Assembly: GCF_028641065.1 (NCBI RefSeq)
Contig: NC_073397.1
Span: forward strand, 7,812,001-7,876,000
Direction: 5' to 3'
DNA from: Leucoraja erinacea
Lineage: Eukaryota
DNA length: 64,000 nucleotides
Below the pieces are notes generated by a model. That model was not told the DNA's origin. It made no database searches and was given only the letters and a program-made list of their open reading frames with translations. A program made the position numbers and the translations under genes. This document shows positions 14,140 through 56,534 of the stretch, one piece after another (positions within the stretch are counted from its first letter, which is position 1; each line of letters begins with the position of its first letter).

Positions 14140-14925
14140 ACAACTTATTGGCAGACCAAGCGCAGGCTTGGCGATCATTTCGCTGAACACCTCCACTCAG
14201 TCCGCATGCACCTACCTGATCTCCCAATTGCCAAACACATCAATTTCCCCTCCCATTCCCACACTGACCCGTCTGCCCTAGGCCTCCTCCATTGTCAGAG
14301 TGAGGCTAAAAGCAAATTGGAGGAACCCAATCTCATTTTTCTCTTAGGCAGCTTACAACCCAGTGGCATGATTCCTCTCACTTCAAGTAACCCCTGCGTT
14401 CCCTCCCTCTCCATCCCTCCCCCATCCAAGTCGTACCAGCTTCAAAGTCTAAAAACAAAGCCACTCTAAAAACAAAATAAAACGTTTTGTTAAGACTCAT
14501 TATCTGTAACTAGTTCTCACCTAACAAACAGCTGACAATGACCCCTTTCCTTTATCATCATTACTTTTTTGCATCTCTCTCATTCATTTGTTCTATATCT
14601 CTCTATATCATCGTCTATATCTCTCGATTCCCTTTCCCCTGACTCTCCAGTCTGAAGAAGGGTCTCAACCCGAAACGTCACCTATTTCTTCTCTCCAGCC
14701 ATCTGCCCGTCTCGCTGAGTTACTCCAGCAGTTTGTGTCTACCATCGGTTTAAACCAGCATCAGCAGTTCCTTCCCAAACCTCTTCATAGATACATCCTA
14801 GATCTCTCCAACCAACTAGTCTAGAAAAGGGTCTCAACCCAAAACATCACCCATTCCTTCGCTCCAGAGATGCTGCCTGTCCCGCTGAGTTACTCTTGCA
14901 CTTTGTGTCTATCTTCAGTACAAAA
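14140..14925 (+). mobile_element. Penelope-like element 3' end: GIY-YIG endonuclease remnant plus terminal repeat
   Basis: YWQTKRRLGDHFAEHLHSV...PIAKH.N..SH...LEE..LIF.LG.LQP.GM is the GIY-YIG C-terminal signature of Penelope elements. It is followed by two copies of the short terminal repeat. Confidence 0.9.
14652..14679 (+). ncRNA. Minimal hammerhead ribozyme motif in the Penelope terminal repeat
   Basis: CTGAAGA-A-GGGT(CTCA)ACCC-GAAA-C-GTC, in sense orientation to the Penelope ORF. Confidence 0.65.
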
Positions 14926-16236
14926 CTTCAAGTGGTATTGTCATTTCATGCCTATATAGAGAGTCTAGCAAATTCCCCACAATACATATTACACTAACTG
15001 GTCGATAATTCATTGGTTTCTCCTTCCCATCCTCCTTGAGGGAAGGGAATTTTTTAATCTAAAGGAATGGATGTCAAACGGAGTAAATTAGATCAGCAAT
15101 GTAACTGTAAACCTTGGGATGGAAGTCATCGGGTCCTGTGGATTTATCACTCTTTACCGTCATTATTTGCTTCGTCACTTTTTCTTTTCTTGGGTTAATT
15201 TTGGCTAGTGATGAACCAAATTGAACAAGATTTTGTAGGAACACCTCAACAGATCTACACAAACCTGCCCACAGAATCCCACTTCTACCCCAGCAAGTGT
15301 GAACTTGGAAACCCCAAACTCACTGGCAGTAGTTTGTTGAAAATTTCACAATGACCCTCAGTGCTGGATTCTGTGTGAAGCTGCTGAACGTTATGGCCCC
15401 TACACCTGAAAATCTGCTCTAAGGCCCGGTGCCAAGTTGCAATGGACAGTCCTCCATTCACTTCTTGGAGAAGTACAGCTACAAGACTTAAAGTGCCAGT
15501 TTTGTTAAAGGTATCTTTAAAGTACTCTAAAACCAAAATAAAACTATTGATTAATGTTTGTTTGATAGATTGATTGATGGTTTCCGGACTTCAGAAGAGC
15601 TCGTGACCGAAAATGTGACCCATGTCGTCAACTATACCCGTGTGAGGCTTGGTGTTTCCAGGAGCACAACCCGAGTGTCAGTTTTCAGGTTACGAAGAAC
15701 ACTAAGAATTAAACTTCAATAGGTTGCTCCTCCATGAATAAATAGAAACCAAATCACAAGAAATTATAAATAGAAATGCAGCAACAGTAACGTCACAGAG
15801 TTTAGCTTCGGCTCCCTTTTACTGAAAGATCAATAATGTAATTTGCAGCACACATTAGAATAATAATGCCATTGATAAGACCATCAAGGAAAGATTGTCA
15901 GGGAAGGGTCAAGAGTAGTCAATAGAGGCTTTGTCATCTATATAGGCTCATAATATGACTTCCTCCCATGGCCTCTTGATTTAAAACTTCACAGTGTGAA
16001 GGAGAGCAGTTGAATATAAGGTGCTGTGCTTCAGGAGTATGTGAGCAGAGTTACACCTGTACCTGTGCTGGGAAGAGTTGTGAAATATTTGAAAGCGCAG
16101 AGTTCACGGGGAGAGCAGGGGAACACAAGTGCCACACCTCGCAGACATCAATGCAGAGACACAGACACAGTCACACATACACAGTGAAACAGACACACAC
16201 ACAGACAGAGAGACAGACACACACACAAACAGAGAC

Positions 16237-18510: not shown

Positions 18511-20199
18511 AAGATAAACAGTACACTGAGTTAATCTTTGTTCATTCCTTTGTGTTACATATTCTTGCATGTTTAACCTAGCCACTTTAACCACAGTTAG
18601 GATGTAGGGTTTGTTTATATTTAAGATTAATTCTTTGGGATAATGTTTCCCACCCCTTGGTCTATACCCATGTCTTTGCCTATAAATTACGAGATTCATA
18701 CACGTGGATCAGAGGTTCACACGCAAAGTAGGTTGGCCATTGTCAGAAATGTATTAAACAGCAAATCCAACAGACTATAGCACTATTTGTTTTGCAGCAG
18801 ACAATACAAGCGTGTTTAATTGTGTAGGAAGGAACTGCAGATGCTGGTTTACACCGACCATAGACACAAACGTGAAGGAGTAACTCAGCAGGCCAGGCAA
18901 CATCTCTGGAGATAAGGAATGGGTGACATTTCAGGTCAAGAGTGTTTTATTGTCATGTGTCCTAGATAGAACAATGAAATTCTCACTTACTGCAGCACAA
19001 CAGAATATGTAAACTATTTTCTTCAGCCTGAAGAAGGGTCTTGACCTGAAACGTCACCCATTCCTTCTCTCCAGAGATGCTGCCTGCCCCGCAGTGTTTA
19101 ATTGTTATATGCAATGAGAATAGATCAATGAACTTCATACTTGCTGCAGCCTTACAGACATATTGATGTAACAGCACAACAAATAAATATTAGAATCAAT
19201 AATACAATTATTAAATTGTCAGTGATACCAGACCATAATTATTGTAGTCAGCTTGTTATAAATATTGCAGTTGACTGGTGGGGTATTTCCATTATGGGGC
19301 TGGTCTCCCGTTGCCCCTGGATCACGGGCCTGCTATTCTTCCAACATCCCTCCAGATGCACTCTCCCACTAGGAGCTCACACAGCTTCACATTTGAGATG
19401 CACCAAAATGCACCAAAAGTGTAAAAAATAAAATAACATTTAAAAAAAATGTTAAAGACTTGCAGTTAAAGTAGTTAAAATGTTTGAACTATCTCCACTC
19501 ACATTGCACCCAACAGCTGATGGCCTCCAGTCATTTTCTGAGTTTGGCCTAGCACAGGTGGAGCCAGCCTGCGGAGAAGATCACCCTACCCGAGGACCCC
19601 GCAAGGACTATATCAGCGTGGGACTGGTGGCAGGGCACCAGGTGCCACCAGCAGCCTGTACCCACATCATCGGGCAAGCCCTGGCAGTACCGGTAGATCC
19701 GCCCATTAAATCGGGAGATCAACAGTGACGGCGGTTGTGAAACAACTAGATTGCCATTAATCATTTATGAGTTCACTAATGCCTTTCAGGGCAGGAAGTC
19801 TTCCATTCTTCTGCACTGTGCTCTACTTGGGAGCATCTGAAAATCACTCACTGCTACAGCAATTAGAGATGCGCAGTAAATCCTTCCTTGTTCCCAACAA
19901 GTGGGCATTGCAGGTATGAAATCACTCGGAGTGTTGTGGGAATAACTGAATAACATCAAGTGCTTCAGTGGAAGGTATAATTTAAATTATATGAAGAGTC
20001 ATAGACATGGAGGCATACAGCATGAAATTAAGCCCTTCGGCCCAAACCTCCGACCAAAACTTGCACCATCTACACTATACCCCCATCTGGGGAATGTTTG
20101 GCCTATGTTCCTCTATGAACTTATCCTATCCATATTGTTCTACTTACACCCTCTATATATTTTAAATGTTGCCTTTAAAAGTGCCTGTTGTTGAGGAAT

Positions 20200-20228
20200 T
20201 TTTCTTTAGTTTTTTTCTAGTATGTTGA

Positions 20229-20262
<34 letters not shown>

Positions 20263-22150: not shown

Positions 22151-22182
22151 CTGTCCAACTGTATATCATCTATCTATCTATC

Positions 22183-26383: not shown

Positions 26384-28820
26384 CCAGGGCCCCCTGCCGA
26401 GGCCGCCCTAGGTGACAGTTCGGGTAGAGACCCTTCATCAGATTCGTAGCTGCAGTATTTGCGAGGTTGGTTCAGTAGAGTGGTTCTGTCAATGGTGACC
26501 ACGAGGATGTTGATGAATGGAGGCTAGGTGACTTCTACGCTTTTAAATGTAATGGGTGGGAAGTTACGGGCAATCAATGCCAGCACTTTTGTGGAGTGAA
26601 CATTACAGGCCACATACGTAGCTACTCGTGGCCAAGTGTAGTTTAGGATGCGTTTTTTTGCAGGTATTAATTGGTTATTTGTTGAGGTTTTGTGAATGAT
26701 GATGATACTTTATTGTCACGTGCACCTGTGAACTTAGACACAGTAAAAATCTTTGGTTTGCATTCATTCGAGTAAAAACATATTATACATTCAATTAAAT
26801 TGAGCACACAATCATAACAAGTATAGAAGTGCAATGATTGTAGTGCAATAGTGTTCTTCACCGAGACAGTACACAAACAGTCTCCACATTTCTGGCACCA
26901 AAGTTCTGAAGAGGGCAGTGTTATTTTGGCCTTAAAGGCCTATTGTCCTAGCACCACTGATCCTCCCCTTTGCCCGCCGCCCTCTTCAACTCAGCCCTTT
27001 GTCTATCATCCATGGTTGGAAGATGTAGGCTGGCTCAAGAATGGGCCTCTATTCTACTCTGGGCGTGCGAGCCGGGCCTTCCTGGTGGGTTCCTGGTCTG
27101 CAACACGGGTCCTCCATCCCTGGCAGGCCAAGCGGGCAAGCTGAACCTTCCAGGCCCATGGCCAGCCAGGACCCAGTGGGTGTTTCCGGCCGGGTCCAGG
27201 ACTGCCGGTGGGTCTACCACGGCTTGCTGGGAATTATGTTGAATAACATGCAATGATCAGCGATTTCCTCACTGCCTAGATTATAGACGAATAAAACTTA
27301 GCGCTAATACTGGTCAGGCAACGTACAACACAGATAAAAGAGCGTAAAGTAATTCAAGTCATTTGGTCTCAGAGGTTTTTAACTCACCATCCCTCCTTCT
27401 CTGCTACGCCAAACTAACAGCTTCCCTTTCCCAGCCTTGGCAAAAGGTCTACGATCTTAAATATTAACTCTTTTTCCTCCCACAGATGCTGCCTGAAATG
27501 CTGAGTGTTTCCAGCATTTGCTGCTTTTAATTCAGATTTCCACCGTCTACAATTCACAGCTAGATGCGTCAGGACTGCACACCTCCAATCTGATCTCCTG
27601 GTTGTGAGGTGGCTTAGCTGCCCATCCAAATAGTTTACTATGCCTGTGATCCCTTACTGCAGCTTCTCGTCACTTTGGGCAGTGCAGGGGCTGTCCGTGG
27701 TATGCCCTTTGTTTTCCTCATTGAATACAACTTGATCCCCCAAGGGATGTGCCGGGTCATCAGGTTGCTGCTGCTGAGGACTAATATACCGATGGATGCC
27801 AAGTTTTGAGCTGCCAGATTGGATCAGAGTTTATCCCGTTCAAGGAACATGGAATAATATAGCACAGGAACAGGCCCTTTGGCCCACAATATCTGTGCCA
27901 AACATGATGCAAAGACCAGGTCTTATTTGCCTGCACATAATCCAGGTCTCCCCATTCACTGCATATCCATGTGCCTATCTAAAAGTTACTTCAATGCCAC
28001 TACTGCATCTGCCTCCACCACCACCAGCACATCCCAGGCACTCGCCACCCTCTGTTAAAAACGTACCCCACACATCGCCTTTAAACTTTGCACCTCTAAC
28101 CTCAAAGCTATGCCCTCTAGTATTTGATATTTCCATCCTGGGAGAAATATTCTGACTGACGACCTCATCTCTGACTCTTATAATTGTATATAGTGTATTA
28201 CTTCTATCCTTAACCAACTTCCCAGAGAAAACAATTCAAATCTGACCAACCTCTCCCTGCCCTAAACCAGGCACAATTTATATAAATCTCCTCTGCACCC
28301 TCTCCAAACCTCCACATGCTTCCTGTAATGGGGCAACCAGACCTCGCACAACACTAGGGATGGCACAGCGGTGTAGCGGTGGAGCTACTGCCTTACAGAC
28401 TGTCTGCACGGAGTTTGTACGTTCTCCCCATGTCCTGCCTCGGTTTTCACTGAGATATTCGGTTTCCTCCCACACTGCAAACACGCACAGGTTTGTAAGT
28501 TAATTGGCTTGGTATAAATGTAAAATTGTCCTTAGTGTGTCTAGGGTAGTGTTAATATGCGGGGATCGCTGGTCGGTACAGACTCGGTGAGCCGAAGAGC
28601 TTGTTTCCATGCTGTATCTCTAAACTAAACACTGGATAGGATTGTCATGCCAAACACATTGGAAGGTGAGAAAGGATCCTGACCCGAAACGTCACTCATC
28701 CATGTTCTCCAGGGACGCTGAAAGGCCCGCTGAGTTACTCCAGTCCTTCCTCGGTAAATCAGCATCCTCATCTCCTAGTTTCTACAATGGAGGCTCTGCC
28801 TGGTTTGAATGCTGGACAGT

Positions 28821-28848
28821 CTGAAGAAGGGTTTCGGCCCGAAACGTC
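28821..28848 (+). ncRNA. Minimal hammerhead ribozyme motif (Penelope-derived short repeat)
   Basis: CTGAAGA-A-GGGT(TTCG)GCCC-GAAA-C-GTC. The element 28821-28913 is flanked by the 17-bp duplication TTTGAATGCTGGACAGT. Confidence 0.65.
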
Positions 28849-28959
28849 GTCTATTTCCTTCGCTCCATAGATGCTGCTGCACCCGCTGAGTTTCTCCAGC
28901 AATTTTGTATACCTTTGAATGCTGGACAGTTCCTTCCCAAAGACTCCAGTGATCACTTC

Positions 28960-30534: not shown

Positions 30535-33004
30535 GATCACTTCACAAGCTATAGGAGTAGAATTAGGCCACACGTCCCATCGAGTCTACTCCACCATTCA
30601 ATCATGGCTGATCTCTGCCTCCTGATCCCATTTTCGTGCCTTCTCCCCACAACCCTTGACACCCGTTCTACTCACGAACACTTACCAAACTTGCCGCACT
30701 CATCAAAACACTTGCCAGTGCTTAAATTGCACTTGCTCCATATCCCTCCAAACCTGTCCTATCCATGTACCTGCTTAACTGTTTCTTAAACGTTGGGATA
30801 GACCCAGCCTCACTACGTCCTCTGACAGCTTGTTCCATACATCCATCCATACATTCCATAAGTTTTTTTGGCCTTCCATCACAGCGATGTGATGAATGTT
30901 TATGTAAATTATGTTGTGTCTTGGGTCTATTTGTTTGTAATGTATGACTGCAGAAACGGCATTTCGTTTGGACCTCAAGGGGTCCAAATGACAATTAAAT
31001 TGTATCTTATCTTATCTTATCTTACATCCACCACCCTTTGTGTGAAAGAGTTACCCTTCAGATTCCTATTAAATCTTTTCCCCTTCACCATGAACCTATG
31101 TCCTCTGGTCCTCGATTCCCCTACGATCTGGGTCGACACAGTTTGGCCTGTCCAGTTTCATCCTTCTCTTTTTACGACACTTAATGGTAAAGATACTGCT
31201 GTTAGACCCTTTTAGAAAGCACTTAAGAGTTGGTCTGGAGTCAGTCAACCACAGGGGATATATCGGTCACCCATCTTACAGGCCAATTGAGGAGGAAATG
31301 AATAAAATCAGAGGGGCAATGTTGGGGATATCTATGGCTCGAGAAGATTGAAGAGATATGTATTTAAGGATGAGGTCTAACATTTTAAATGAATCGTTTT
31401 GCAAAAAAAAGAAATTAAAGATCTATAATACACGTCAACCACTGATGTGCCCTTGAATTAACTGGTTTGGCTCAGTAGCCACTTCAATTACCTGCCTTCC
31501 CACTGATGGTAGGGACGCACAAGACTTTAAAAGTTTTCAGCTAAGCATCATGCCCCAACTCCAGACTGCCTGTGAAGAACTCCACAGGAGATCCACCAAA
31601 CAAAAACAATATTACAGCATTAGGAAAAATCAATAGCAAAAGGGACAGAATGAAGCAACCCCTGTTTAAAGGTATCAGAATCCTTTCAGTAGTATGAGCT
31701 TAATAGCTTTTCTTTCGAAAGATTAACCAGCCTGATTTTAAATGACTTAACAAAACAAGAAAGGCGCTTTTAAACAAAAGGCTGCATCAAAATCTCTTCA
31801 ATAAACATTGAATAATACATGAACAGAATATGCTGGGAATATAAGGTCACTTAAGCCAATCTCTGGAGAGAAAAGACAAGCTACCTGAATCCCGTATTAA
31901 AAAGCAAACGTTTCACTAAAGTTAGGATAAGAGAGGGAAAGAAATTCAGACGGAAAACTGTGTGTGGGAATTACCAGCGGAACGTAATATTTTAAATGAG
32001 ATGCAAACTGTGGAATACATGGATACTGTAAAAGATGAGCGAAGTACGATGAACAAATTAACAGTTAACAGGGTGACGGTAAACAGCAGACGATCACGAA
32101 GAGTCCAAGGCAAAAAAATCAAAGCAATAAACATGAAAACTGTACAAACTAAAACCATTCTTGGTAAAACAGGTGAAGATCAGGGCACCAGCCAACATAT
32201 TTGTCATAGAGTCACAGCATGGAAACACACCCTTTGGACCAACTTGTCCATGCTAACCAAGAGGCCTATTAAATGCCTGAAGAAATGTCTCGACCCGAAA
32301 CGTCACCCATTCTTTCTATCCAGAGATGCTGCCTGTCCCGCTGAATTACTCCAGCATTTTGTACCCACGGAATTTGTTCCATTTCCCCATGCCTGACCAA
32401 TATCCCTCTAAACCTTGTTTGAAGAAGGGTTTTGGCCCGAAACGTTGCCTATTTCCTTCGCTCCATAGATGCTGCTGCACCCGCTGAGTTTCTCCAGCTT
32501 TTTTGTGTAACCTCCCTCTAAACCTTTCCTATCTGTATACCTGTCTAAATATCTTTTGAAGGTTCTACTGTACCTGCCTCAACTACTTTATCCGACAGCT
32601 CATTCCTTATGCCCATACCGTCTGTGTGAAAAAAGATTATGCTCAGATTCCCCTTAAATCGTTTCCCTCTCATCTTAAACCTACGCCCTCTAGTTTTTGA
32701 TTCCCCTATTCTAGAAAAAAATAATGCTGTGCCTTCATCATTTCTATTCCCCTCACGATTTTATACATCCCTGGAAGATCACTCCAGAGGCTGCGGCACT
32801 CCAAGGAATAAAGTCTTAGCCTTCCCAACCTTTCCCTATAGTTCAGACCCCTTGTATCTTTGCAACATGCTTATAAATCTTCTTTACACTCTGGATACAA
32901 GGATCTAACCTTCTAGAGCAGCCAACCATGTGGAATCTTTCAAAGGCCTTGCTGAGTCCATATAGATTATGTCTACAGTTCCATCGCTCTTGGCTACTTT
33001 TAGC

Positions 33005-33456
33005 GTAGTTTCATTTTTGAGATACAGCGTGGAAACAGCGTTTCAACCCACCGAGTCTGTGCCAACCAGTGATCACCCAATACACTAATTCCATCCTACA
33101 CATTCGGAAAAATTTACAATTTTTACCAAAGCCAATTAACGTACAAACCTGTACGTCTTTGGGATGTGGGAGGAAACCAGAGTAGCCAGAGAAAACCCAC
33201 ATGGTCACAGGGAAAATGTAAGACAGCACCCATAGCTGGGATCGAACTAGGGTCCCTGGCACTGTAAGGCAGCAACTCTACCGATGCCAAATAACCTACA
33301 GACCTGCACGTCTTTAGAGATTGGGAGGGAACCGGAGTACCCGGAAAAAACGCACGGGGAGAACATACAAACTACATTTCAGGCAGCACCCATAGTCAGG
33401 ATCGAACCTGCGTCTCTGGCACTGTAAGGCAGCAACTCTACCGCTGTGCCACCGCA
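33005..33456 (-). mobile_element. HE1-type SINE with a tandem partial duplication of the head
   Basis: Two consecutive head/V-domain units. Confidence 0.8.
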
Positions 33457-35525: not shown

Positions 35526-36274
35526 TAGAGTAAAGCTCTGGTCAATGGCTCGATTAATGTTGGGATGTTATTATCTGGAATTTAGGTAAATTAACTGTTC
35601 TTGTCATTCATTAGACATAGTGTCTTGCTGCCTCTTCCATGTCCTACTGGTGGGATGTCATTGACAGCTTCATAGTTATCGAAGGAGTTACAAATCAAAG
35701 TGATTACTGCAGAATCAGCAGCACATGCCTAGTTCTGATCTTACACTGGAGAGGATGTCACTGATGGAGCAGATGGGGACGGTGGGTTGAGCACATTGTT
35801 CTGTGGAATCCCTAGTGGTGTTGCTAGGTGATAACAAGAACCATCCGCTACATCAAATATGTCCCTCTTTCCCTCAGCTTAAGCAGCTTTCTGAGATTTA
35901 TAGAGCAGGAAACAAATGCCAGAACATATGTCATCAGTATATCATCTCTTTCTCTCCCACACATTTGTATTTTGAACATTTACTTCAAAAACCAGCAGTG
36001 TAAAATGTCAAATAATATCATTTTGGAAGCTTGTCTTGTTGGTAAATATTTCTGAAATCTAACTGCTCAGAAAGCAACGGCATCTTATAATCATGCCTCA
36101 GTTGACTAAACTGGCCTATTTTGAGATTCAGGGGATCATGCACATACAACTACATTTCTGGACAATGTTCAAATCCATGGTCAAGTCTTCATCAGTTGTG
36201 GCTAAGGTATAGAACGCTGAGCCCTGAGCCACATGGTTAAAAGTTCAGATTGATCTCCAGACATCCAACTATGT

Positions 36275-36670
36275 GGAGTAACTCAGCAGGACAGGCAACA
36301 TCTCTGGATAGAAGGAATGGGTGACGTTTCGGATCGAGATCCTTCTTCAGACTATGTTAGGGGAGAGGGAGATACAGAGATATGGATGGGCAAGGTGTGA
36401 AAACAAGATATTAAAGGGGACGAATTTCAAGGAAAATGTAGAATTGAACATTGTTAGCAAGGGGAAGATGACAATGAGGCATATAAAGATTAAATTTAAT
36501 CAGGACAGTCAGACTGGTTGGAGATATAGGATGGGGGAGGGACGGAGAGTGGGGGAAAGCAAGGGTTACTTAAAGTTAGAGAAATCAATATTCGTACCGC
36601 GGGGTTGGACTCTACCCAAGCTTTATGTCTATCTTTGGTGTAAACCAGCATCTGCAGTTCCTTCCTACAC
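36275..36670 (-). mobile_element. Penelope 3' fragment with hammerhead motif (36350-36323)
   Basis: Reverse complement of the 14340-14750 region; carries CTGAAGA-A-GGATC(TC)GATCC-GAAA-C-GTC. Confidence 0.8.
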
Positions 36671-37725: not shown

Positions 37726-40700
37726 TGTCACGCTTCTGCTGTTGGAATAACTTGGGTCATACACAGTGATTAAGATCCAAAGACTTTATTAGCGTTACAG
37801 CATAGGTAACTTCATCTTACTACGTAACTCAAGACTGAGGAAGCTTTCTGTTAAACTAGCGGGTGTAGCTACAAAGTATCTCATAACACGAGTGACACTG
37901 ATCTACATCCTCCCTCTTAAAGAATTACATGTCAATACAAAACCATTGACTAAATAAGGCACGCATAGCAATTGTTAATTAGCTGCAGGAAAGTCAAACA
38001 TAGCCCGGGTACTTCACGGTGGGCTTGCAAACATGACCAGCACGGGAGCGATAAAAAACATCTCCGTTTTTCCCCACCGGGGTCAGAGCCGGTGGCTTCA
38101 CGGGTGATGGAGATTGAACAGGGGACTGCAGCGCAGGCAGAGGGGGCATCGCCACTGGCAAAGCAGCCGCTCCCAAACTGGGTTGTTGTGCTGGTGCAAG
38201 CGGATCAATGCCGCTGGGCACAGACGGCAGTACACTTGTACAGTCTGGAGAATACAGAGGTGGAGTCTGCTCATTCACAGGCAAGATATGTTGGCTGTTA
38301 CGCCTGTAGGTGCCGCCATTGGCACTGACCAGATATGAGTGTGGCTCAGAAGCAGTTCCAGCAATTACACAGATACAGTCATGGTCTTGGTCAGTTTACA
38401 AATGAACCACCCGCCCCTTGGTTAGTTATGTGGCGAAAACCCCAGCATGCAGCAAACTTGAAGTGTTGGCTGGTAAATTGACTGCTGTTATCAGAATGCA
38501 CGGAGCTCGTTGTCTGCAAAATGGTGAGCAAGCTTCGAAACTACCCCGCGAGAAATGGGACTGCTAAGAAAATCAATGCCAAATCATCCAGAATGTGAAT
38601 TGACAAGTACCAGGTACTGCTTGCCATGACATTCAAACATGTCAGTTGCCACTGTAGACCGCGGGAAAGCAGGAGCCGGATGTGAAAGAAGTGGTTGCTT
38701 TTGTTGATGAGGTGCAAAACTGTTGCACACTGCACAGGATGCCACATTCCCAGTAATGTATTCGGACATGCCAGGCCGGTAAAACATGTTACTTGCCCGT
38801 AGGACGGTGGCATTTATTTGAAGAAGATTTCTCAATTTACATTGAAGCAGCTCACCCTACTGCTGCTCCCGGTATTCGAGCGTCAATTCTACTTAATCTA
38901 GCAGACACAGAAGCTGCCAAGGTGCAAGAAGATTTCATTATGTACCGGCTAGGTTTTACCCGGCTGGTGTCCAGATCGCTCCCGTTGAATCTACCCGTGA
39001 ACCCGATTGCCTACTATGCAAATTCCGACAGTTATGTGAGTTACACACTAACTTGGTCATGGAGAGGCATTTGTTCTTTTCCCGATGCCAGAGACAGGGT
39101 GAACCTGTGGAGATGTGTCAGTGACTTGAAGCACATTGCCAGTCGATGTGATTTCAGGGATATACGTGATAGCTTAATCCGTGACCTTTTGGTCGATGGT
39201 GTCCGCAATGATAAATTACGCTACGAGTTATTGTGGAATGCTGAGCTGACTCTAGTGACTGCTCAAAACCGCTGTCACATTGCTGAAATGTCTGACGCTC
39301 ATAAAAAAGTTTTAGGGCACTCTGCTGGTCATGCAATTAATGTTGCCGGCATGTCTTATCAAATCTCTTGCCATTCTCCTCAAGTGCCCGACAACTCTAT
39401 CGTGAGGTGGGGGTTTGCATGCTGCTGTTCATGACCGTTGCCCTGCGTATGGAAAATTATGTCGATTTTGTAACAAAAGGTATAATTTCTTCAAATGCTG
39501 CCGCTTGTGTAGCAACAGAGTTCAAACAAGGCAATCTGTAAATTCACTTGGCTATGAGAACTTGCTCTCAGAATGCTCTCAACCAGCTCCTGTAGGCTGC
39601 TAGCGAAAGGTTTTGACTTGAATGTGCATTCCCTGTTTGACTCAATACACAAACCACTAGACCCCAAGGTCGCTTTGCTCGCTAATGGTAAGAACTTTTA
39701 TCTGAAAGTTGACACAGGGGCCAGGTGTATCGTGATTTGTCTGGCTGTGTTGAAAAAGTTACGAAAAACAGAGACTGTCACTACTACGGCTGCCTCCCTT
39801 CTCCCATTTGCAGGAGGTCCAGGGCACCCTATTGGTCAAGTCGAGTTATGCTGCTGTCTTAACTGACGTGTCCACAACCTGAATTTCTATGTTGTTCGTG
39901 AGGATGTGCCGTCTCTGCTGGGTGCCAATGCTTGTCACGACATGGGACTTGTCTCTTTCACCCCTTCTGTTTGTCATCTGACTACAACCTGTGACTTTAG
40001 CCAACAAATCCTGACACAATACAAAACTTTGTTTGACGACAAGCTGGGCAGGCTGCCTGTTAAGTACACAATTACCATTAACCCTGAGATAATCCCAGTT
40101 GTCCGTCCAGCACACAAGATTCCCCATGCCATGTTCAAAATGACCTCAACACAATGGTGTCTCTAGGTGTGATTGCGCCTGTCGCTGACCCCTCGGATTG
40201 GGTCTCCACCATGGTTGTGGCAACAAAGAAGAATAAAGACAAAATACAGATTTGTATCAACCCTAAGGATTTAAACACAGCCATTAAACGACCTCACTAT
40301 CCCATGTGCACTGTGGACGAGATTGCAGCGCAGATGGCTGAGGCAACTGTATTCACTGTACGAGATGCCAAGAGTTCATTCTGGCAGATTTTGCTGGAAC
40401 ACAACTCCTCCAAGGTAACCACCTTCAACACACCGTTCGGACGATACAGATTTCTTCGCATGCCTTTTGGCATAAGCTCTGCTAGTGAAGTATTTCAATA
40501 AGCTATGGAGCAGTTGTTTGCGGGTTACCCATGTCCATTGTAGTGGATGACATCCTCGTTGCTGGACGAACTGTCAAAGAACACGATGCTAATCTGACAA
40601 AGGTCCTGGATCTCACCAAGGCCATTAACCTCAAGCTAAACCCTCAAAAATGCAAATTCAGGATAAGTGAGGTGAAATACATAGGCCATGTGTTCACTAA

Positions 40701-41402: not shown

Positions 41403-42258
41403 CAGAGTCTTCACTGTTAGTAATGTAGACAAAGAGTCGTCACCAGTTCCGCTAATGGATACATGCCGCCCGGCTGTTCAGTTTTGTGCTGACTGATTAA
41501 GCTGCCAGATTTGCATTTTTAATAATTAAGCCTACCACAAAATGCTTCCTACACACAGCAAAGTCACAAGGTGGCAAGTGATAGTGTCATTCCAATCAGA
41601 AAACAAAAGAGACACAAAGTGCTGGAGTAATTTAGCGAGTCAGGCAGCATCACCAGCAAACAAGGAGGTGACATTTTGGTTGGGACCCTTCATCACATTA
41701 TCTACGTTCGCCAGAAATGTTGCCGGACACACCGAGTTACTCCAGCACTTTGTGTCTTTTTTTTTAAAAATATTGGTCTGCACCTGCAGTCTCCTGTATC
41801 TAAATGAATTTATTCAGTTTCATTGTTTCATGCATTAAGTAGATATTAGCAATTAAAAAAAAACTATTTGCCTTTTCAGATGCTTTTCATGATGGTACAG
41901 ATGCAATCATTTGGATGGAGGTAGGAGACATTGACGACTCTCAGCAAACAGTTTGTCAAGGAAAATAAAACAGTATGTTGGAAATACTCAGCAGGTCAGG
42001 CAGCATTTGTGGAGAAAGGAGCAGTCAGATCAGATGCTTAGTCGCAGCATTATTTTCATTCCAGCGGTGTTTTGTTCTTGGATCACTGTAGGATAACGTC
42101 TATTCACTCACAGGTCTATCCAAAACACGGAGGAAACAGGATTCATTGCAACCTTTCCCAATAAAATCTATGGAACTTTTCTACAAATTGCACTCTGTAT
42201 GTTCACATTCACATTTATTGCCACATGCACCAATTAAGGTACAGTGGAATTTGATTTA

Positions 42259-43900: not shown

Positions 43901-46338
43901 AGATGCACTTTGTAGATGCACTTCAAATCACCGGCACTAAATGGGGCCCTTTTACTGGATCCTATCTATTCCCCTCTCTATACACGGTTCACAATTTAGA
44001 CACATGTTTATTCACATTTCCAGATTTGTAGAAAGGCCGTTGACCTGAAAGGCTAACCTAGTTTCCCACTCCATAGATGCTCACCCACTTCCTGAATATT
44101 TCTGGCATTTTCTATTTTATCTTAATTATGACTTCACCCACAGCAACTGCAATTTGCTGCTTTTGACATCGATTCAACCTTCTCCTTCAATCCTTTCTCA
44201 ATATGCAAAGCTAAAGACTGCCAGTGCAACACTTAATAAGGTCCCATCTACCTGACTTCACAGCAGCATTGCAAACCTCCAGGCCATGCTTTCGGAACAC
44301 ACAGAGGACATGAGCAAGTAGCGGAAGGCCCAGACCACCTCCCAAACTGACCACCTACCTCCAACGCCATCTTCACTTCTCACATTGACTGCATCAGCCA
44401 CCAGAGAACCAACATAACTAAGAGTGGAAGCAAGTAATCCTTGATCCCAAAGGGATTGCACGAGATGACGAAAGATCTGTATTTGTAGGGATCAATATCC
44501 GAGCGAATGTATGCAGGAAAAGGCTAATTAATATTGCGTGCTTCAGCAAAATTGGTGGCTGGACAGCGAGCCACTATCACTTTATAATAAGGCAGTCTCA
44601 TGGTCTGACGGGAAATGGTAACAGTAAAGAGTTTAAACTCCATCAAAACTCATTGTATTGTAGAACCACAGAAACGTTTTGTTATAAATGGATGGAAAAC
44701 TCATTTATTCCAGTTTAGATAACTGCTTCATTATTGTATGGCCAAGACAATTTATTCAAAGATGGACACAAAAAAACAGAGCAATTCAGCAGGTCAGTCA
44801 GAATCTCAGGAGAAAAGACATAGGTGAAGTTTCACGTCAAGACCCTTCTAAAGTCTCCAGAGATGCTGTCTGACCTGCTGAGTTACTCCAGCTTTTTGTA
44901 TTCCTACAACATTCCCATTGAGTCGCATGAGATTAAGTTCAATAGGATCGTAAGCTTTTAACACTGTTTGACCTTGACCTAAGAAATAGAAGGAAAATTG
45001 GTGAGTTTTTGGTGGATATACTTGACATTACAATGTAACCCAGAGGTGGCTTCACGCAGCTCCATAGCAAGAGAAAGGCATGTTATCAATGTAGATACAG
45101 CATTAGATTTACCTGGAGGCAATGCCGATGATCATGTGCCCAAATAAATCTCTCACCAGTACAATGCCAGAAAGAAATTCTGAAGGGAGTTCCCAACATA
45201 AGCTATAGTAGAATACATCCTTTAATAAACCACCAGACAATGATGAAACTAAATCACAGATTCCAATTTCCTGAGAATCATGTGGGCATTGTGTTCACAT
45301 GGTTGGACAAGAAGTGGAGAAGGTACCATAAATATATTTAAAAACCCTGAATGCAAGCTCTTCCAAATATCATTACAAAGAACACTGGTCATGACTTTTC
45401 TGAATAGTAAAATGTTTCACTGTGAGAGTCTGTGACGAGTAATATATCATGTTTCTCTCAAATGACCGTACATTTAGTGATGTGGACGTCAATATTAAAA
45501 AATGTTAAATTTGAACATCCTAATTGTCTTAGAAGTTTTCCAAAAAGAAAACACCTCCCAAAAAGTTCAAGGCAACAGACTTAGAAGTAATGGTTTGGAT
45601 TGTGCACATTTCTCTTGTCAGGCTGCAAGCAACATTTGCTACCTAGTAAAGAATCCTAGTGCCTATAATCTGATCATATGCAACCTTCATACATCGTGCA
45701 CTGCCATGTTATCAAAAGCTGGTCAGGGAGTCAAGAGTCAAGAATGTTTAATTGACATATGTATCAAAATGAAACGTTGGAATTCTAGGCATTACTTCGA
45801 GGAAGTTATGGGCATAAAAAGGGGCAAAGCCCGATACATTTTAGAAAACAAGGACAGAAACAAGGATATACAGCATATATCAAAGTAGGATTGGACTGGT
45901 AGCCCACATATAACATGGAGTATAAAAAAGAAACCTATATGATGCTGATGCAAAACTAGACACAAAAAGCTGGAGTTACTCTGCAGGTCAGGCAACTCCT
46001 CTGGATAAAAGGAATAGGTGAAGTTTCGGGTCGAGACCCTTCTTCAGACTCCGAGGCAAAGATGACCGATTGTTCTTGATGAAAAGTCATCAACCTGAAA
46101 CATTAATTCTGTTTCTCTCCACACAGACTCCACCTGCCCTGTTGGGCATTTCCATCAATTCTGTTTTAATTCAGGTTGAACACAAATGCAATCTTTTTCA
46201 GAATCAGATTTTCAATTATGGATGGGTATTGCATGCTCATGGAGGATGCAATATGCTTAGGACAAAGTGGAATTATTGAGCCCAAAACTTGGTTTGGATT
46301 TCACCAACAAGCAGGCATGGAGCAGGGAAATATGTGTC

Positions 46339-47318
46339 TGTTAGTTTAGACAAGCACACCTCTTCAACCCTCACCCTGAACACCGGCGTTCCACAGGGCT
46401 GTATGCTGAGCCCCCTCCTCTACTCCCTCTTCACCTATGACTGCACACCTGTACATGGTACTAACACCATCATCAAGTATGCAGATGATACAACGGTGAT
46501 TGGCCTCATCAGCAACAACGATGAGTTGGCCTACAGGGAGGAGGTCCAGCACTTAGCATGGTGCGCTGACAACAACCTGGCCCTTAACTCCAAGAAGACC
46601 AAGGAGCTCATTGTAGACTTCAGGAAGTCCAGAGGCGGCACGCACACCCCCATCCACATTAACGGGACGGAGGTGGAACGTGTTTCTAGCTTCAGGTTAC
46701 TGGGAGTCAACATCTCCGATGACCTCTCTTGGACCCACAATACCTCAACTCTGATCAAGAATGCTCACCAGCGTCTCTTCTTCCTGAGGAGACTGAAGAA
46801 GGTCCATCTGTCTCCTCAGATCCTGGTGAACTTCTACCACTGCACCATCGAGAGCATCCTTACCAACTGCATCACAGTATGGTATAGCAATTGCTCTGTC
46901 TCCGACCGGAAGGCACTGCAGAGGGTGGTGAAAATTACCCAACGCATCACCGGTTCCTCGCTCCCCTCCATTGAGTCGGTCCAAAGCAAGCGCTGTCTGC
47001 GGAGGGCGCTCAGCATCGCCAAGGACTGCTCTCACCCCAACCATGGACTGTTTACCCTCCTACCATCCGGGAGGCGCTACAGGTCTCTCCATTGCCGAAC
47101 CAGCAGGTCGAGGAACAGCTTCTTTCCGGCGGCTGTCACTCTGCTCAACAACGTACCTCGGTGACTGCCAATCACCACCCCCCCCCCCCCACGGACACTT
47201 ATTATTATTTATTCAAATCATTTGCTATGTCGCTCTTCCAGGGAGATGCTAAATGCATTCCGTTGTCTCTGTACTGTACACTGACAATGACAATTAAAAT
47301 TGAATCTTAATCTGAATC
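46339..47318 (+). mobile_element. Rex1/Babar LINE 3' end, young
   Basis: Uninterrupted ORF with GVPQGCMLSP, KYADDTT, KNAHQRLFFLRRL and LPSGRRYRS. Near-identical to the reverse complement of 8760-9725. Confidence 0.95.
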
Positions 47319-49623: not shown

Positions 49624-51446
49624 ATGTATCTGTGCACTGTGGACGGTTTAATTGTAATCATGTAATCATTGTAGTCTTTCCGCTGACTGGTTAGCATGCA
49701 TCAAATAGGGTTCACTGTACCTCGGTACACGTGACAATAAACTCAACACCCACAAATGCCAGAAAAGTTCTCCTGAGGAGGTTTCTATTATGGGTAATCC
49801 AGCACAGAAAGAGCCCAACAAACGTCATTCCCACCCCTTCAGTATGTCCCATCCTGGCTTCATTACACAACTTTAATTTCACTTTAAAGAGGACATTCTG
49901 TTTCTTTTCTGTGGAGATTCAGAGACTGCGTTACCAGCAGTTTTGGGACTGATGCTGAAACAGAGAGAGAAAAAAATGACCGTTTGCAACTCCCCCTGGG
50001 CTAATTGGAGGAAAGAGGAACTCTGAACCAAAGATCTAAAGAACCAAAGGCACAACACCAAGAAGAAGCTGCTAGTGGCCTTCTACCGGGTGACCATTGA
50101 GAGTCTACTGACATATCGCATGTCAGTGTGGTATGCAGGCTGCTCTGCTGCAGATAAGAAAGCGCTCCAGAGAGTGGTATAAACAGCAGAGAGAATCACT
50201 GGCTGACCTCTCTGGAGGATACTGCCACCTCACGCTACCCTAGCAGAGCCACTAAAATCATCAAAGACCCCACACACCCCAGTCACCACCTTTTAGACCA
50301 GTTGCCCTCTGGCAGGCGTTACAAGTCAGCCAACACACGCACCTCCAGACTCAGGGACAGTTTCTCCCCCAAAGCAATCTTCACACTCAATATGAAAAAA
50401 ACACCTAGTATTATTCCTGCTGCTACCCACCTTGAACTTTACTATCACCATGTACAGTACCGTTTACTTACTTATCTTGATACCTAGTTTTTAAACATTG
50501 TTTTTAAATTGTGTCCTGTGTTTTTATGTTTGTATATTATGCACCAATGGAGTGGCAATGACAATGTCGTTGCATGCAGTGTTTGCAACGACAAATAAAG
50601 GCATTTCATTCGTTTTCGATTATCTTTGCTCTGAACTGCCACCAAAAAAGCTGCCATGTTCACAAACCTGTTTGGAGACGAGGGTCAACCCTGCCTCTTG
50701 GGATGATATCATTTCCAGTTCATGCTTCCACCAGGGTCAACCAGGCCCATGTGACATTCTTGAGCGGCCCTGCCATGTAGGCCTCACATTACAACTGGGG
50801 GGGAGGGTGTGGGTGGATGGAGGGGGCGCAGTATTTTCCCGGATTTGGGAATATTTCTACCGTCAAGCGACGCTTGGCCAGAACCTCGTCGTAACGGATC
50901 AGCCAAGGTAGTAACCCCGCATGGTGATCTATCCATTACCCATTCTATCATCTATCATAAGGTGAACGGCCTTGTCTCACTCTGCACACCTTGTCACAGA
51001 TCCGTTGACGGTAAACCTTCCCAATTAAACCAGTCGATGTAACCGGCCCCGAGCAACAACCCAACCGTGTCAACGAGCCTGTAGATAGATGCGCTTTGGG
51101 GCAACCGCTCCCAACTAATGGGGAGCTCAGCTCAACTCAACTCAACTTTATGCACAGTATCTCGAAAGGCAGTCGAGCAAGTAACACGAACATTAAGGAC
51201 ATAGGTTCCCCTCTCCCCTTATGCTCGCTCTGAAGAAGGGTCTCTGCCCGAAACATCGCCTATTCCTTCTCTCCAGAGATGCTGCCTGTCCCGCTGAGTT
51301 ACTCCAGCATTTCCATCTGTCCCTCCTCCCTAAACAAGCTCGACGCTTGTAGTCTGGGACTTCGCTTTCACGTTTTAAACAGACAAGTGGACTTCACACA
51401 GCCCGCTGCAATGTAACCATTAGATTGAGAAGGTGGTTGCACTCAC

Positions 51447-51510
51447 CTGTTAGTAGACAGAGAGGGAGCAGGAGCCTGAAGATTAAGCCGCAGCCGAGGT
51501 GAGCAGCCAT
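51447..51510 (-). CDS. PIEZO2-like: PIEZO-family mechanosensitive channel (PIEZO2-like, possibly piezo3), coding exon 1
   Basis: ATG in strong context (GCGATGG). Translates MAAHLGCGLIFRLLLPLCLLT, compared with PIEZO2 MASEVVCGLIFRLLLPICLAV. 64 nt, the known PIEZO exon-1 coding length. Donor GTGAGT at 51446-51441. Confidence 0.93.
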
Positions 51511-52170: not shown

Positions 52171-52379
52171 GTTTTGGCAGTTTTGATGCGTAGTCACGAT
52201 GATGTGGACAGAAAGATTGTAGAGTAAGCGCAAGTCAAGGCTATGATGGAGGACTCTGGTTAAAATTAAGGGGTCGCCAACACCTTTGTGTTTGGAAGTT
52301 GAGTTCTTAGAATCCACTCAAGGCAGAGTGTGTTGGTTTGTTTGTTGCATGTCCCCGTTATGAAGCAGAACAATGACAT

Positions 52380-52945: not shown

Positions 52946-55900
52946 CAGGCACATTAGCCACAATTACAACAAGAAATAATCAAACAATTATCATTTACTT
53001 GAAGTAAACTAGACCACGATAGTGCAAAATACAAAACACATAGAGCAGCCATGGTAGTGCAAAGTCCGTAGTGGCTTGGGGCATGAGCTATGACTGTGGT
53101 TGTTGTGCAGGGTGGTTCAATGGTTGATGGCAAGAAGCTGTTCTTGAATCTAGAGGCAATAGTTCTCAAGCTCTTGAACCTTATTCTTGATGGTAGCAAC
53201 CAGAAGAGAATGTGTCCAGCAGGCTGGGTGTGGGGGTATGATGATTATAACAGCTGCCATCTTGAGGGAGCCTTTCTTGTAGTTGGGTTGATGGTGTGGA
53301 GATCCATACATATCAGACCAGACAATGTCCACCACTTTCTGCGGTCTCCTTCATTCACGAGTGTTCAAGTTTTTGAACAAGGTCACGATGCAACCAGTCA
53401 GTAAGCCCTCCACCGCACATTTGTGGATGTCTAACAGAGTATTCGGTAGCATGGGTGAATCTCCTCATGCTTCTGAGCACATCAAGGCATTGGCGAGCTT
53501 CCTTTGTGATGGCATCAATGTGCTGAGCCCAGGACTGGCTATCAGGGATGTACACACAGGAACCCGAGGCTCTTGCCTCCCTCCACTGCCGTCTCCCAAT
53601 GAAGGCCATGCACAGTCTCTCAGGCTTCTCTTCTTTGAGCAAAGTCCAAGCCTCTGTATAAATGGAAGCAATATTTGGCAAGATGCAGGAACGTGCCATA
53701 TTAAATAATCTTTATATCTACCTGCAAGGTTAATGATTAATCGCATTGCAAGAATTCCTTGAAGAAAGATTGATCCTCATCAATTGATCCTCATTGATCC
53801 TATGAAAAAGTTTTTGTTTTGGATTGGAGAGTGATGGACTCAAACATAGAACTACGTCTTAAACTAACAAAAGCAATTATTTAACTATGAGGCTGAAGTA
53901 GATTAGGTTTTATATTAAAAGGTGAAGGGAGATAAATAACAGCAAACATCCACAACTAACCAAAGCAATTAAGAAGTTTGTCAGAAGGAACTGCAGATGC
54001 TGGTTTAAACCGAAGGACACAAAAAACTGGAGTAACTTAGTGGGTCAGATAGTGGGTTCTCTTGAGAAAATAAATAGTCTTTTCTCCAGCGATGCTGTCT
54101 GACCTGCTGTGTTACTCCAAAGCTTTTTGTGTCTATCTCCAATTAAGTTTGGTTGAAAACTGCCACAATACCATCACAGCATTAAAAAAAAAACATTTGG
54201 ACAAGTACATGGATAGGATAGGTTTAGTGGGATATAGGCCAAATGCAGGAAGGTGGTACTAGTGTAGATGGGACATGTTGGTCAGCGTGGGCAAGTTGGG
54301 CTGACGGATCTGTTTCCACGCTGTATCACTCTACGACCCTATAAGAAATAAACCTGAACATTGAGAGAGTTCATCCAAACAGCAAAAGCTGGTAAAATAA
54401 TTGAGCCATGAAGTAATGTGACATGGAAACTGGCCCTTTAGATCATGCTGATCACCAAGCACCCATTTATACCAATCATACACCCATCCTATTTAATTTT
54501 ACACAAACTCCGATCAACTGAATGGATAGGACAAGTTTGGAGGGATATGGACCAAATGCAGACAGGTGGGACTAGTGTAGCTGGGACATATTGGCCGGTG
54601 TGGGCAAGTTGGGCCGAACGGCCTGTTTCCACACTGTATCATTCTATGACTGTATGACTCTAACCCCTATGGGGCAATTCACAACAGCCAATTATCCTAG
54701 CAACCCTCAAGTCTTTGAGATATGGCAGCAAGCCAGTGCAATCTCCACACAGACAGCACCCGAGGTCAAGATTGAACCCGGTTTGCTGGAACTGAGGCTG
54801 CGGCTCTACCACGGCACTCCACTGTTAATAAAGAGGAAGTACATAAAATGAGAATAAACTAATTGCAGAGTTGTGGATGAAGCCCAGTCCGTCACACAAA
54901 CCAGCTACCAGTCCATTAATTCCACCTACACTTCATACTGTTTTGGGAGAGAACCCAACATAATTAAGGACCACTCGGACCCTGGTCATTTTCTCCTCTT
55001 CCTTCTTCCGTTGGGCAGAAGAAACAAAACATTGAAACCAGGCACCACCAGATTCAACAACCTCTTCTCCACTGTTATCAGACGCTTGAACAGACCTCTC
55101 AGAAGCTAATAATGTAATCCCAAACTCCAAATCTGCCTCATTGCAGCCTTACACTTATTCTTTATATTCTCTTTGGCAGCTGCAACACTTTATTACTCTG
55201 TTTCCTTTCACTTTTGGCAATTGCTGCAGTACGTCATGTATGGCAACGATTTGCATGGACAGCACCAAAAACAAAACTTGCCACTGTATCTTGATCAACA
55301 TGACGATAATAAATCAATACCAATATATGAATGTTGTGAATGACTCAAAGGTACGTAATCGCATCTGGATACTCAGTAAAGCTGTCTGTGGCCATGTTGA
55401 ATTGAGGTCCTAGCTAGCCATCGTGTACTGAGGTTAGGAAAGAACATACAGTACAACTTGTGGAGGAAGGAACTGCAGATGCTGGTTTACACAGAAGTTA
55501 GACACAAAATGTTGGGGAGTCTCGGCCCGAAACATTACCCATTCCTTCTATCCAGAGATGCTGCCCGAGTTATTCCAGCATTTTGTGCCTATATTTCAAT
55601 ACCACACGTGGAGCTAACAGATTAACTTTTCATACTACTTCGAACAATGAAAGCACAATAATATGCATGAACATATTGTTGCTGAGTTCCTCTTGTCTTC
55701 TTGGGTCCCCAAGTACAAATTGATGTGAATAATCTGACTGGCTCCAGATGAGAGTGAACTGGCAGCACCCTCGGGATGCGCTGCATAATGTACTTTGGAT
55801 TAACTCTCCTCCTCTCCTGTAACTACATATCTATAAAGGGCAGTCTGCCACAAATCCATTAGTCATCCATTTAACTGCCCTTTTATCTTGGTTTTTATCT

Positions 55901-56534
55901 ATGTTCATCACCTTTCTCTCCAGAGAAAATGTTGAACAATGTGCTCAGAAGCTAGCGATCTTTCCCATTTCCTCCCCTCTTGTGCTGCAGACTTGCAGTT
56001 GCACCTTTGTTCATCCTCATTTCAAACAGCCCGTCCTCTAAATCTGGGGCCTGGAACATGTTTCCTCCCCCTGGAGATGTAATAGTTGCAACGTTACATC
56101 TTAAATTGGTTCACGCCCACAAATACTTAATTTCCAGAAGTCTTTTTGGTGGTCCTCCTTTTCTACATCCAATGGCAAATGTAACAACCCTGTATTTGCA
56201 CTCGTTGGCAATCAGTAGGTCTTGCTCAGGATAGCTTTTGGAATAAAGTATACTTGCATGTGCATTGTTATTCTGTCGAGACTCTTCTTCAGTCTGAAAG
56301 AAGGGTCTTGACCTGAAACGTCATCCATTCCTTCTGTCCAGAGATGCTGCCGGTCCCGCTGAGTTACTCCGGCAGTTTGTGTCCATCTTCATTTTCTTGG
56401 CCCCGCTCTTTTTTTTTCCGGTAATGTTTTTTTATTAGATTTTTAAACAAATGTACAATTTACAAGGGAAGGTAGAAAGCTCAAACAATTTAGAAAACAC
56501 TTAAACAAAATTATCAATTTAAAATATTAACATT

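Follow-up and report, generated by a model that had tools for sequence, protein, structure and literature searches.

Hammerhead repeats and the PIEZO gene

A stretch of 64,000 nucleotides from the genome of the skate Leucoraja erinacea (contig NC_073397.1, positions 7,812,001 to 7,876,000), called the window here, carries the beginning of the coding region of a PIEZO-family gene on its minus strand and, dispersed through the same DNA, a family of short repeats with a minimal hammerhead ribozyme motif. The first, second and third coding exons of the gene lie at 51447..51510, 13145..13240 and 11285..11386, all on the minus strand (tblastn, for the second and third with paralogue exons, the second at E 2e-13; splice sites were read in each case), with 13241-51446 as the first intron of the coding region. 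As set out below, the repeat is probably the pseudo-long terminal repeat (pLTR) end of a very abundant Neptune-type Penelope-like retrotransposon (Penelope-like element, PLE), with most copies being stubs of 95-135 nt that likely arose when reverse transcription started inside an uncut transcript and ran to its 5' end.

Nine copies of the motif had been named in the first-pass annotation. The repeat is present at all nine coordinates, but in a strict scan for CTGA-N-GA...GAAA only 14652, 19028, 28821, 32277 and 51230 on the plus strand and 36350 and 46047 on the minus strand match, while the copy at 32419 (+) reads TTGAAGA in the profile alignment, with C3 lost, and the copy at 56294 (+) has an additional A within the core. 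The core, the four stem II pairs and ACGT-H are kept together in four of the nine (14652, 19028, 28821 and 36350). The helix III palindrome ACGT, taken as general for the family, is indeed found in all subfamily consensuses, but it is lost in 46047 (ACTT) and in 51230 (ACAT). A profile made from the nine copies gave 36 matches in the window at E<=1, many of them without a core and several arranged as head-to-head pairs, so the repeat family is bigger than was stated earlier. An Rfam scan of the window returned no hammerhead family at E<=1, and its miRNA-like and plastid hairpin matches at 5858-5945, all under gathering scores, were rejected as a fold-back pair of the repeat itself.

An exact 33-nt form was counted 7,972 times in the 2.19-Gb genome, against 0 for the reversed control, so that the repeat is not due to chance. 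A profile search of 40 arbitrary 10-kb stretches gave 155 matches, from which ~850,000 genome matches are extrapolated, a figure that counts each half of an inverted pair separately. Core, stem II and ACGT-H are intact in 11 of 102 unbiased copies that reach the core.

The copy at 14649..14780 (+) is a pLTR end with an intact minimal hammerhead (core 14652-14679) and a tail of ~35 nt, as seen in the core scan, the profile and the motif check. Upstream of it, at 14152..14391 (+), tblastn with the endonuclease protein P0001 (see below) found a remnant of a GIY-YIG endonuclease C-terminus (62% identity, E 3e-23; the GIY-YIG protein P0011 matched at E 7e-11), which alone has no Pfam match, and a pyrimidine-rich 3' untranslated region (UTR) of ~257 nt separates this remnant from the hammerhead. 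On the minus strand, the last residues of an endonuclease frame (36569..36601, tblastn, E 0.12, weak alone) lie 218 nt upstream of the motif in the pLTR end at 36255..36353, which is intact with stem II GGAT/ATCC. The description of many copies as short units free of open reading frames (ORFs) is therefore right in general and wrong for these two. Both the pLTR end at 36255..36353 and the short unit at 45954..46050 (-), which begins at AGT and is the one with ACTT, are sense in the PIEZO intron (core scan and motif check).

Among the short copies of the plus strand, the one at 19025..19092 has an intact motif with G.U at the base of stem II, an unpaired helix I and an approximate 3' end (core scan, motif check), and it stands head-to-head with a 5'-truncated copy without a core at 18856..18941 (-, profile). 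The core letters are kept at 32277..32371, where stem II is broken, and at 51228..51317, the copy with ACAT (core scan and motif check for both). Two short units were delimited by junction reading. One (~28818-28913, feature 28804..28930, +) has an intact motif and a UUCG loop, and an exact 17-bp target duplication (28804-28820 and 28914-28930) lies on either side of it and overlaps the first bases of the element; the other (32417-32512, feature 32403..32526, +), the copy without C3, was placed in the youngest subfamily by the subfamily search and has an exact 14-bp target duplication (32403-32416 and 32513-32526). The latter is an insertion separate from 32277 and not its tandem partner. When 11 window copies were tested for duplications, these two were positive and the other nine had none. 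The second copy behind 14652, at 14818..14916 (+), has a broken core (CTAGAAAA, GAAA changed to AAAA) and is no functional tandem partner, and an older degenerate copy at 28668..28748 (+) is broken in the core as well (profile and motif check for both). Since each same-strand pair of neighbours in the window has a broken member, and two members have duplications of their own, these neighbours are not functional dimers.

The copy at 56294 stands head-to-head with a short inverted piece (56275-56298, -), the whole feature being 56275..56391. Other head-to-head pairs were found by the profile at 7990..8140 (truncated copies), 41608..41759, 44760..44903 and 54011..54136, and the Rfam scan and the profile together delimit a fold-back pair of truncated copies with one more copy at 5850..6089. 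The pair at 13941..14065 (profile) belongs to an older, diverged relative with a different stem II region, which was also seen at 27443-27524, 36885-36954, 41971-42017 and 44026-44115, too few copies for a reliable consensus.

Parent element and ribozyme motif

A Penelope origin of the repeat had been proposed, and it is supported by the surroundings of the motif, which sits ~100-260 nt behind the stop of a GIY-YIG endonuclease (EN) frame and at both ends of frames with reverse transcriptase (RT) and EN. The frames upstream of several copies end in IDFSNFR, and the protein of these frames (P0001) has the GIY-YIG layout: it reads IYCIRCSRCQLLYIGET, with histidines downstream, the CCHH motif, and cysteines between GIY and YIG. 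At locus L021 the frame upstream of the motif reads LIYCI-CxxC-LYIGET with the CCHH histidines. This CCHH motif is given as a feature of EN+ PLE endonucleases (PMC8557442). The closest named relatives of P0001 come from skates and rays, followed by invertebrate RT/GIY-YIG proteins, and among the 30 top genomic endonuclease loci the strict motif lies 87-141 nt past the stop in 20. RT and GIY-YIG EN stand together, in this order, in L064 (an open frame of 601 aa) and L065, which are homologous to the RT/GIY-YIG protein P0019; both have a CX4CX2C linker between the two domains, FPCNRKKCYTC in L064, which has the Neptune form CX2-5CxxC.

The order of the parts is seen best in L163, where an endonuclease fragment, a motif, an ORF with RT and EN, a second motif and the tail follow each other, with 4.4 kb between the motifs. 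In both L163 and L164 the 3' end of the endonuclease with its motif lies upstream of the ORF start, as a partial tandem, and in L163 and L166 the repeat is present at both ends, so that pLTRs flank the ORF. A first look gave 107,112 endonuclease candidates against 1,231 for a stretch of 5' DNA, which suggests a truncation gradient, the comparison being only indicative because the two counts come from different query types. Inverted 5'-truncated copies are frequent: 84 of 232 matches in three PIEZO paralogues belong to head-to-head pairs, and there are also longer inverted pairs (L239/L240, L245/L246). The subfamilies have wholly different 3' UTRs (~100 nt or ~190-260 nt), while TCAGT-CTGAAGAAGGG is common to all of them.

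With the Neptune-type EN+ PLEs as described in PMC8557442, the skate element shares the RT with a C-terminal GIY-YIG domain and CCHH, the CX2-5CxxC linker, the DKG motif, pLTRs in partial tandem, inverted 5'-truncated copies, an optional tail of 30-40 bp and target duplications. It differs from that description in that the family is dominated by stubs of ~100 nt whose 5' end is sharply placed right ahead of the hammerhead, and in that no microsatellite targeting is evident at the junctions seen. The literature search found no account of a hammerhead repeat family in cartilaginous fish or of a hotspot of 5' ends in a pLTR, the repeat libraries (Repbase, Dfam), which probably hold the element, lying outside that search. 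The kind of element is already known, and the skate family is a new and very abundant member of it.

Some observations on this element stand by themselves. Near position 1500 of one locus (L209), a short unit with a short target duplication is inserted within the endonuclease coding sequence of another copy, a case of self-insertion. About 35 nt past the tail in L163 and L164, a sequence like a splice donor, AAG|GTATG, coincides in part with the likely start codon; an intron close to the ORF start, which other PLEs have, may be present here too. At +33 to +46 (numbered from the core) the repeat body has a pyrimidine tract that ends in CAG and resembles a splice acceptor. Several skate and ray proteins in the annotation (P0002, P0003, P0010, P0050) have pieces of the endonuclease fused to host domains, either by exonisation or as artefacts of gene models.

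The anatomy of the motif is that of a minimal type I hammerhead, as had been described: the core CUGA-N-GA / GAAA / U-H, the extra base after A9 and the pair G10.1-C11.1 are present in all subfamily consensuses, together with the palindromic ACGT as helix III. The shortness of helix I, which had also been noted, comes down to two pairs (U-A or U.G, then G-C), with A or C at the third position in 184 of 271 copies and a predicted pair probability of at most 0.03. Stem II has four pairs and a 4-nt loop (CUCG, CCCG or UUCG). From the stem II variants listed earlier the 4-bp pairing is retained, but not the fifth pair of GGGTC/GACCC, which would leave a loop of 2 nt and has 7 compensatory changes against 13.4 expected.

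The covariation claimed for stem II is not supported by the counts. Within the nine copies there is 1 two-sided change (in 36350), a value reached by 358 of 500 shuffles, and in 280 copies 15 compensatory changes were observed against 10.2 expected; a deeper comparison through the older diverged relative was given up, with 5 usable copies being too few. Among copies, stem II is no better kept than the rest of the repeat. A lack of excess conservation among copies, which had been proposed as the refuting test, is the wrong one, because copies accumulate neutral changes once inserted and only a comparison of master lineages can reveal selection. At that level, 0 of 13 core positions differ between the five subfamily consensuses, compared with 11 of 46 downstream positions (p 0.048), and the changes in the stem are one-sided (U-A to U.G) or lie in the loop, with pairing kept.

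Structure prediction for four copies of the window did not give the active fold in any minimum-energy structure, and in 3 of the 4 the purine-rich core tends to pair with a neighbouring pyrimidine tract. The ACGT palindrome gives a predicted duplex energy of only -1.7 kcal/mol, and its CpG decays in copies. The youngest subfamily has GUU as cleavage triplet, and GUU is a weaker hammerhead substrate than GUC.

The pLTR hammerheads of metazoan PLEs described by Cervera and De la Pena in 2014 (PMC4209133) have the same CUGA-N-GA core with one base after position 9, G10.1-C11.1, a loopless palindromic helix III, a short helix I and the same pLTR location, and they too are mostly single dispersed motifs with some opposite-strand pairs; that account ascribes to such single motifs of truncated PLEs a poor cleavage. 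The differences are that helix II has 4 bp in the skate and 7-8 bp in Schistosoma (helix I has 2 bp as in D. virilis), that the skate genome holds at least 32,481 exact motifs compared with ~4,000 in coelacanth and ~9,000 in Xenopus, and that GUU is found in the youngest skate subfamily. Cartilaginous fishes are not mentioned in the passages describing these motifs.

Copy ends and the retrotransposition cycle

Copy ends were determined on an unbiased set from 899 kb with 393 matches, of which 248 were kept (at least 85% identity to one of six references, reaching +70) and 145 excluded. Three nucleotides ahead of the core, at the A of TCAGT, the 5' ends accumulate: among the copies at risk, 11 of 110 end at -1, 16 of 99 at -2 and 35 of 83 at -3, while the background in the body is ~0.009 per nt. 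Minor peaks of 5' ends are present at +40 to +43 (27 copies) and at +10 (10 copies), possibly the fold-back points of inverted pairs. At the cleavage site (+28), none of 187 unbiased young copies has its 5' end. The 3' ends are bimodal, at +85-99 and +120-134 from the core, in copies of all lengths, and target duplication junctions were found at both sites, which corresponds to an optional tail of 30-40 bp. In exact counts over the genome, 32,481 cores are preceded by GT, and these divide into 20,464 with CAGT, 4,964 with a base other than C before AGT and 7,053 with a base other than A before GT; among the first 100 matches listed, G stood before AGT in 41, where 27% is expected (p 0.003).

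Of 259 copies that lack a long upstream part, a set that includes pattern-selected loci, 58 have exact target duplications of 9 bp or more, compared with 4 in a swapped control, and a looser first-pass test gave 21 of 60 against 4. Many short copies carry duplications of 9-22 bp. Because of these duplications and the sharp ends, many copies are discrete short insertions, and so the view of them as short units inserted separately is borne out.

Two splicing-based explanations were rejected. A back-splice that would join the donor-like AAG|GTATG of the ORF start with the CAG|TCTG preceding the core has 5 genomic matches, none of them with the donor's upstream sequence by eye, and host exons spliced onto CAG|TCTG are excluded as the source of the AG by the target duplications, which abut the short 5' ends and leave no room for an exon.

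The two 3' ends, together with the lack of 5' ends at the cleavage site, fit the uncut-template model of the green-anole element Poseidon PAc (Frangieh et al. 2024, PMC11167929), where the tail is set by two internal sites of RT initiation, RNA that has not been cleaved serves as the main substrate, and the hammerhead needs the protein for cleavage. In that element, too, the two 3' ends lie ~35 nt apart past the hammerhead and copies run through the cleavage site. It belongs, however, to another clade, its ORF begins inside the hammerhead and its RT starts lie within the ORF, whereas in the skate element the likely start codon would be ~35 nt beyond the tail; the sharp 5'-end hotspot of the skate has no counterpart in the passages describing PAc.

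By analogy with the green-anole element, the two 3' ends of the skate copies would be internal RT start sites, and we somewhat favour as the template an uncut RNA that begins at the initiator-like TCAGTCT, a start placed from DNA ends. RT from +95 or +130 on an RNA starting at -3 would then give a complete short cDNA, whose fates could be solo insertion, fold-back into a head-to-head pair, or a template jump. Insertion of the short unit was presumably target-primed by the element's own endonuclease, as suggested by the duplications or head-to-head pairs of such units, and the longer, 5'-truncated copies could derive from read-through transcripts on which priming took place at the 3' pLTR. Selection would maintain the hammerhead itself in master elements alone; its cleavage would be weak and would need a dimer or the element's protein, and in dispersed copies, those of the PIEZO intron included, it would be largely inert.

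The main rival to the start-site step keeps the same element and explains the hotspot by a cut of the endonuclease in its own pLTR or in the RNA-cDNA intermediate, by arrest of RT, or by a preference for microhomology in joining. We regard it as unlikely, yet it accounts for several facts: the green-anole enzyme cuts its own ORF-pLTR junction (PMC11167929), the further peaks at +40 to +43 and +10 indicate that sequence-dependent stops do occur, inverted junctions also cluster near the motif, and the target duplication runs up to the core in 11 of 58 copies. An RT stalled by the hairpin, however, would be expected to stop at its 3' base, and the hotspot lies past the copied hairpin. TCAGTCT is moreover kept by subfamilies with wholly different upstream UTRs, and it fits the initiator consensus; a downstream promoter element was not seen at the canonical spacing by inspection of the short unit. 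Start sites and initiator-like motifs have also been reported in pLTRs (PMC2377424, PMC3846280, PMC8557442).

Several points nevertheless weigh against the pLTR reading or against parts of it. The Pfam scores of the element's domains are under the curated cut-offs (GIY-YIG for P0001, E 0.0096; RVT_1, E 1e-4), and the label Neptune was given from domain order and linker motif rather than from an RT tree, for a clade that is itself reported as paraphyletic (PMC8557442). The start site is read from DNA ends and not from RNA 5' ends, and the 11 duplications that extend to the core mean that the true 5' end is blurred by microhomology. The -3 peak depends on local alignment to six references, so that upstream variants not represented among them could inflate it. 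For an extra G of the kind that a cap would leave the signs are mixed, since G before AGT is in excess among the first 100 matches listed, as given above, but copies anchored by duplications show no dominant extra G. The copies running into the ORF start (30 read of 113 exact matches) are mostly short internal pieces, 1 of them endonuclease-linked, and since few reach the core they could not confirm a -3 start of full-length copies. Finally, core substitutions among copies are fewer (144 of 2,230, 6.5%) than downstream ones (1,176 of 11,499, 10.2%), which is unexpected under pure neutrality; this difference falls short of significance within the two youngest clusters (20 of 744 compared with 150 of 3,900, p 0.14), and we ascribe the lower rate to ascertainment and unresolved subfamilies.

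Minimal hammerheads in Penelope pLTRs were described in 2014 (PMC4209133), and what is new here is how sharply the 5' ends stop at the A of TCAGTCT. The interest that remains concerns mechanism, namely the Penelope cycle and the part that its hammerhead plays in it, and hundreds of thousands of junctions lead to two testable statements: that the RNA is copied uncut, and that it likely begins 3 nt before the core. If this is true, no more than ~31 nt could be clipped from the capped end by the ribozyme, a point against its serving to release unit-length RNA.

Autonomy of the short units, PIEZO introns and other repeats

It had been suggested that the short units are mobilised independently, in the way of a short interspersed element (SINE) or a retrozyme, and this part of the first-pass annotation was not borne out. 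A self-propagating SINE-like family would have an internal promoter and RT start sites, would be transcribed by itself and copied in trans by the Penelope protein. The short units do have discrete ends, target duplications and no coding capacity, and they outnumber long copies: 66 of 101 unbiased copies that reach the core have no upstream homology above threshold, some of these being diverged long copies, and 14 more are at inverted junctions. The promoter of D. virilis Penelope is internal (PMC2377424), and non-autonomous PLE derivatives are known (PMC8557442; bioRxiv 10.64898/2026.07.22.740005). Master lineages of their own, distinct from the autonomous partner, were however not found in the 30 loci read from the youngest subfamily or among the other main bodies. 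That subfamily has 3,884 near-identical genome matches, and of the 30 loci 17 are endonuclease-linked, 2 have the 3' UTR only and 11 are short (7 of these 11 with exact target duplications), all with the same diagnostic body; the other main bodies likewise occur on endonuclease-linked copies. With one subfamily sampled directly for short against endonuclease-linked loci, no short-only subfamily was found, and we hold independent SINE-like spread to be rather improbable.

Some stubs could still transcribe and amplify alone, since they hold the start site and the RT-loading region. To speculate, and with no more weight than we give to SINE-like spread, each stub may be a full cDNA of the Penelope transcript's initial 95-135 nt, reaching from an initiator 3 nt before the hammerhead to the internal RT start; as what every retrotransposition cycle makes first, it would normally jump to a second template and rebuild the pLTR. 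Some of the stubs could self-amplify as a polymerase II SINE of ~100 nt, with the hammerhead folded shut so that the RNA is copied uncut.

Retrozymes without long terminal repeats (non-LTR), as defined by tandem units (Cervera and De la Pena 2020, PMC7229834; Li et al. 2026, bioRxiv 10.64898/2026.07.22.740005), resemble the skate family in being short, non-coding, hammerhead-bearing and related to PLE pLTRs. In these descriptions they form tandem arrays, in which most hammerheads are canonical, and yield circular RNAs with the cut at the ribozyme, while the skate units are dispersed or inverted, have the minimal motif and end without regard to the cleavage site. Retrozymes have been reported from one chondrichthyan genome (bioRxiv 2026.07.22.740005), and close head-to-tail pairs do occur in the skate (245 + 307 = 552). 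These amount to less than 2% even of the exact-match single cores (at least 32,481), both cores are intact in 7 of 57 distinct tandem loci sampled, and no more than three intact motifs lie within 400 nt in that sample; tandem arrays with a complete hammerhead in consecutive units were thus not seen for the family in the 57 loci, although the few doubly intact ones, such as L370 and L340, could agree with a two-unit definition. Unit ends off the cleavage site in all 187 copies, a motif of the minimal PLE type in place of the canonical one with the 6-bp helix I that defines the described retrozymes (PMC7229834, PMC4209133), and the five back-splice matches mentioned above also speak against dimeric self-cleavage, circularisation and rolling-circle reverse transcription, which we consider very improbable for this family.

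Minisatellite-like arrays of 27-50-nt motif fragments were observed elsewhere in the genome (G000:C20 at ~0.8-6.4 Mb, G000:C4:100478319 and G000:C3:7905512), one variant at several places of C20. A few of them hold 2-3 intact cores close by and would be natural dimer substrates.

For the PIEZO gene, the two minus-strand copies (36350 and 46047, 9.7 kb apart) had been called sense copies in intron 1 and latent cleavage sites of the pre-mRNA. Their place and strand are correct for the first intron of the coding region, but the idea that such copies tune PIEZO pre-mRNA by cleavage is hardly credible. What speaks for it is that 36350 keeps all motif features with 2 bp of helix I. In 476 kb of three PIEZO paralogues, on the other hand, sense copies are neither depleted nor in excess (115 of 232 matches, 73 of 148 solo copies and 12 of 26 intact motifs, with low power for the last), 46047 lacks the palindrome, no intact sense partner lies nearby, and in the predicted structures the core is engaged by the pyrimidine tract downstream of it. 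There is thus no sign of selection against or for sense copies in PIEZO introns, no evidence of a new ribozyme-based control of PIEZO from the repeat family and no sign of harm to the host gene from the repeats. What the family does bring to introns of the skate genome is a large source of fold-back hairpins and of splice-acceptor-like sequence.

With the Pfam N-terminal family three PIEZO loci were detected (on C4, C17 and C21), among them the host gene (window 5600-51510, -). It may be a third paralogue, which we presume to be PIEZO2-like, since its second coding exon shares 72% identity with the C4 paralogue and 50% with that of C17.

Other repeats are also present in the window. Two copies of an RT of the long interspersed element type, both with Pfam RVT_1, are inverted to each other 37 kb apart (8759-10609, - and 46280-47310, +), with arms 94-97% identical. 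At 56806-60035 (-) there are long non-LTR retrotransposon frames, one with endonuclease/phosphatase and RT (748 aa) and a zf-RVT frame (415 aa), which we take to be L1/Tx1-like, and at 38757-40501 (+) broken frames with an RT fragment (Pfam RVT_1), presumably of an LTR retrotransposon. Another abundant family of short repeats (D9, D11, D14, D15) lies at 10802-11744, 33134-33859, 4117-4318 and 6742-6943, and we assume it to resemble the tRNA-derived V-SINE/HE1 elements of elasmobranchs.

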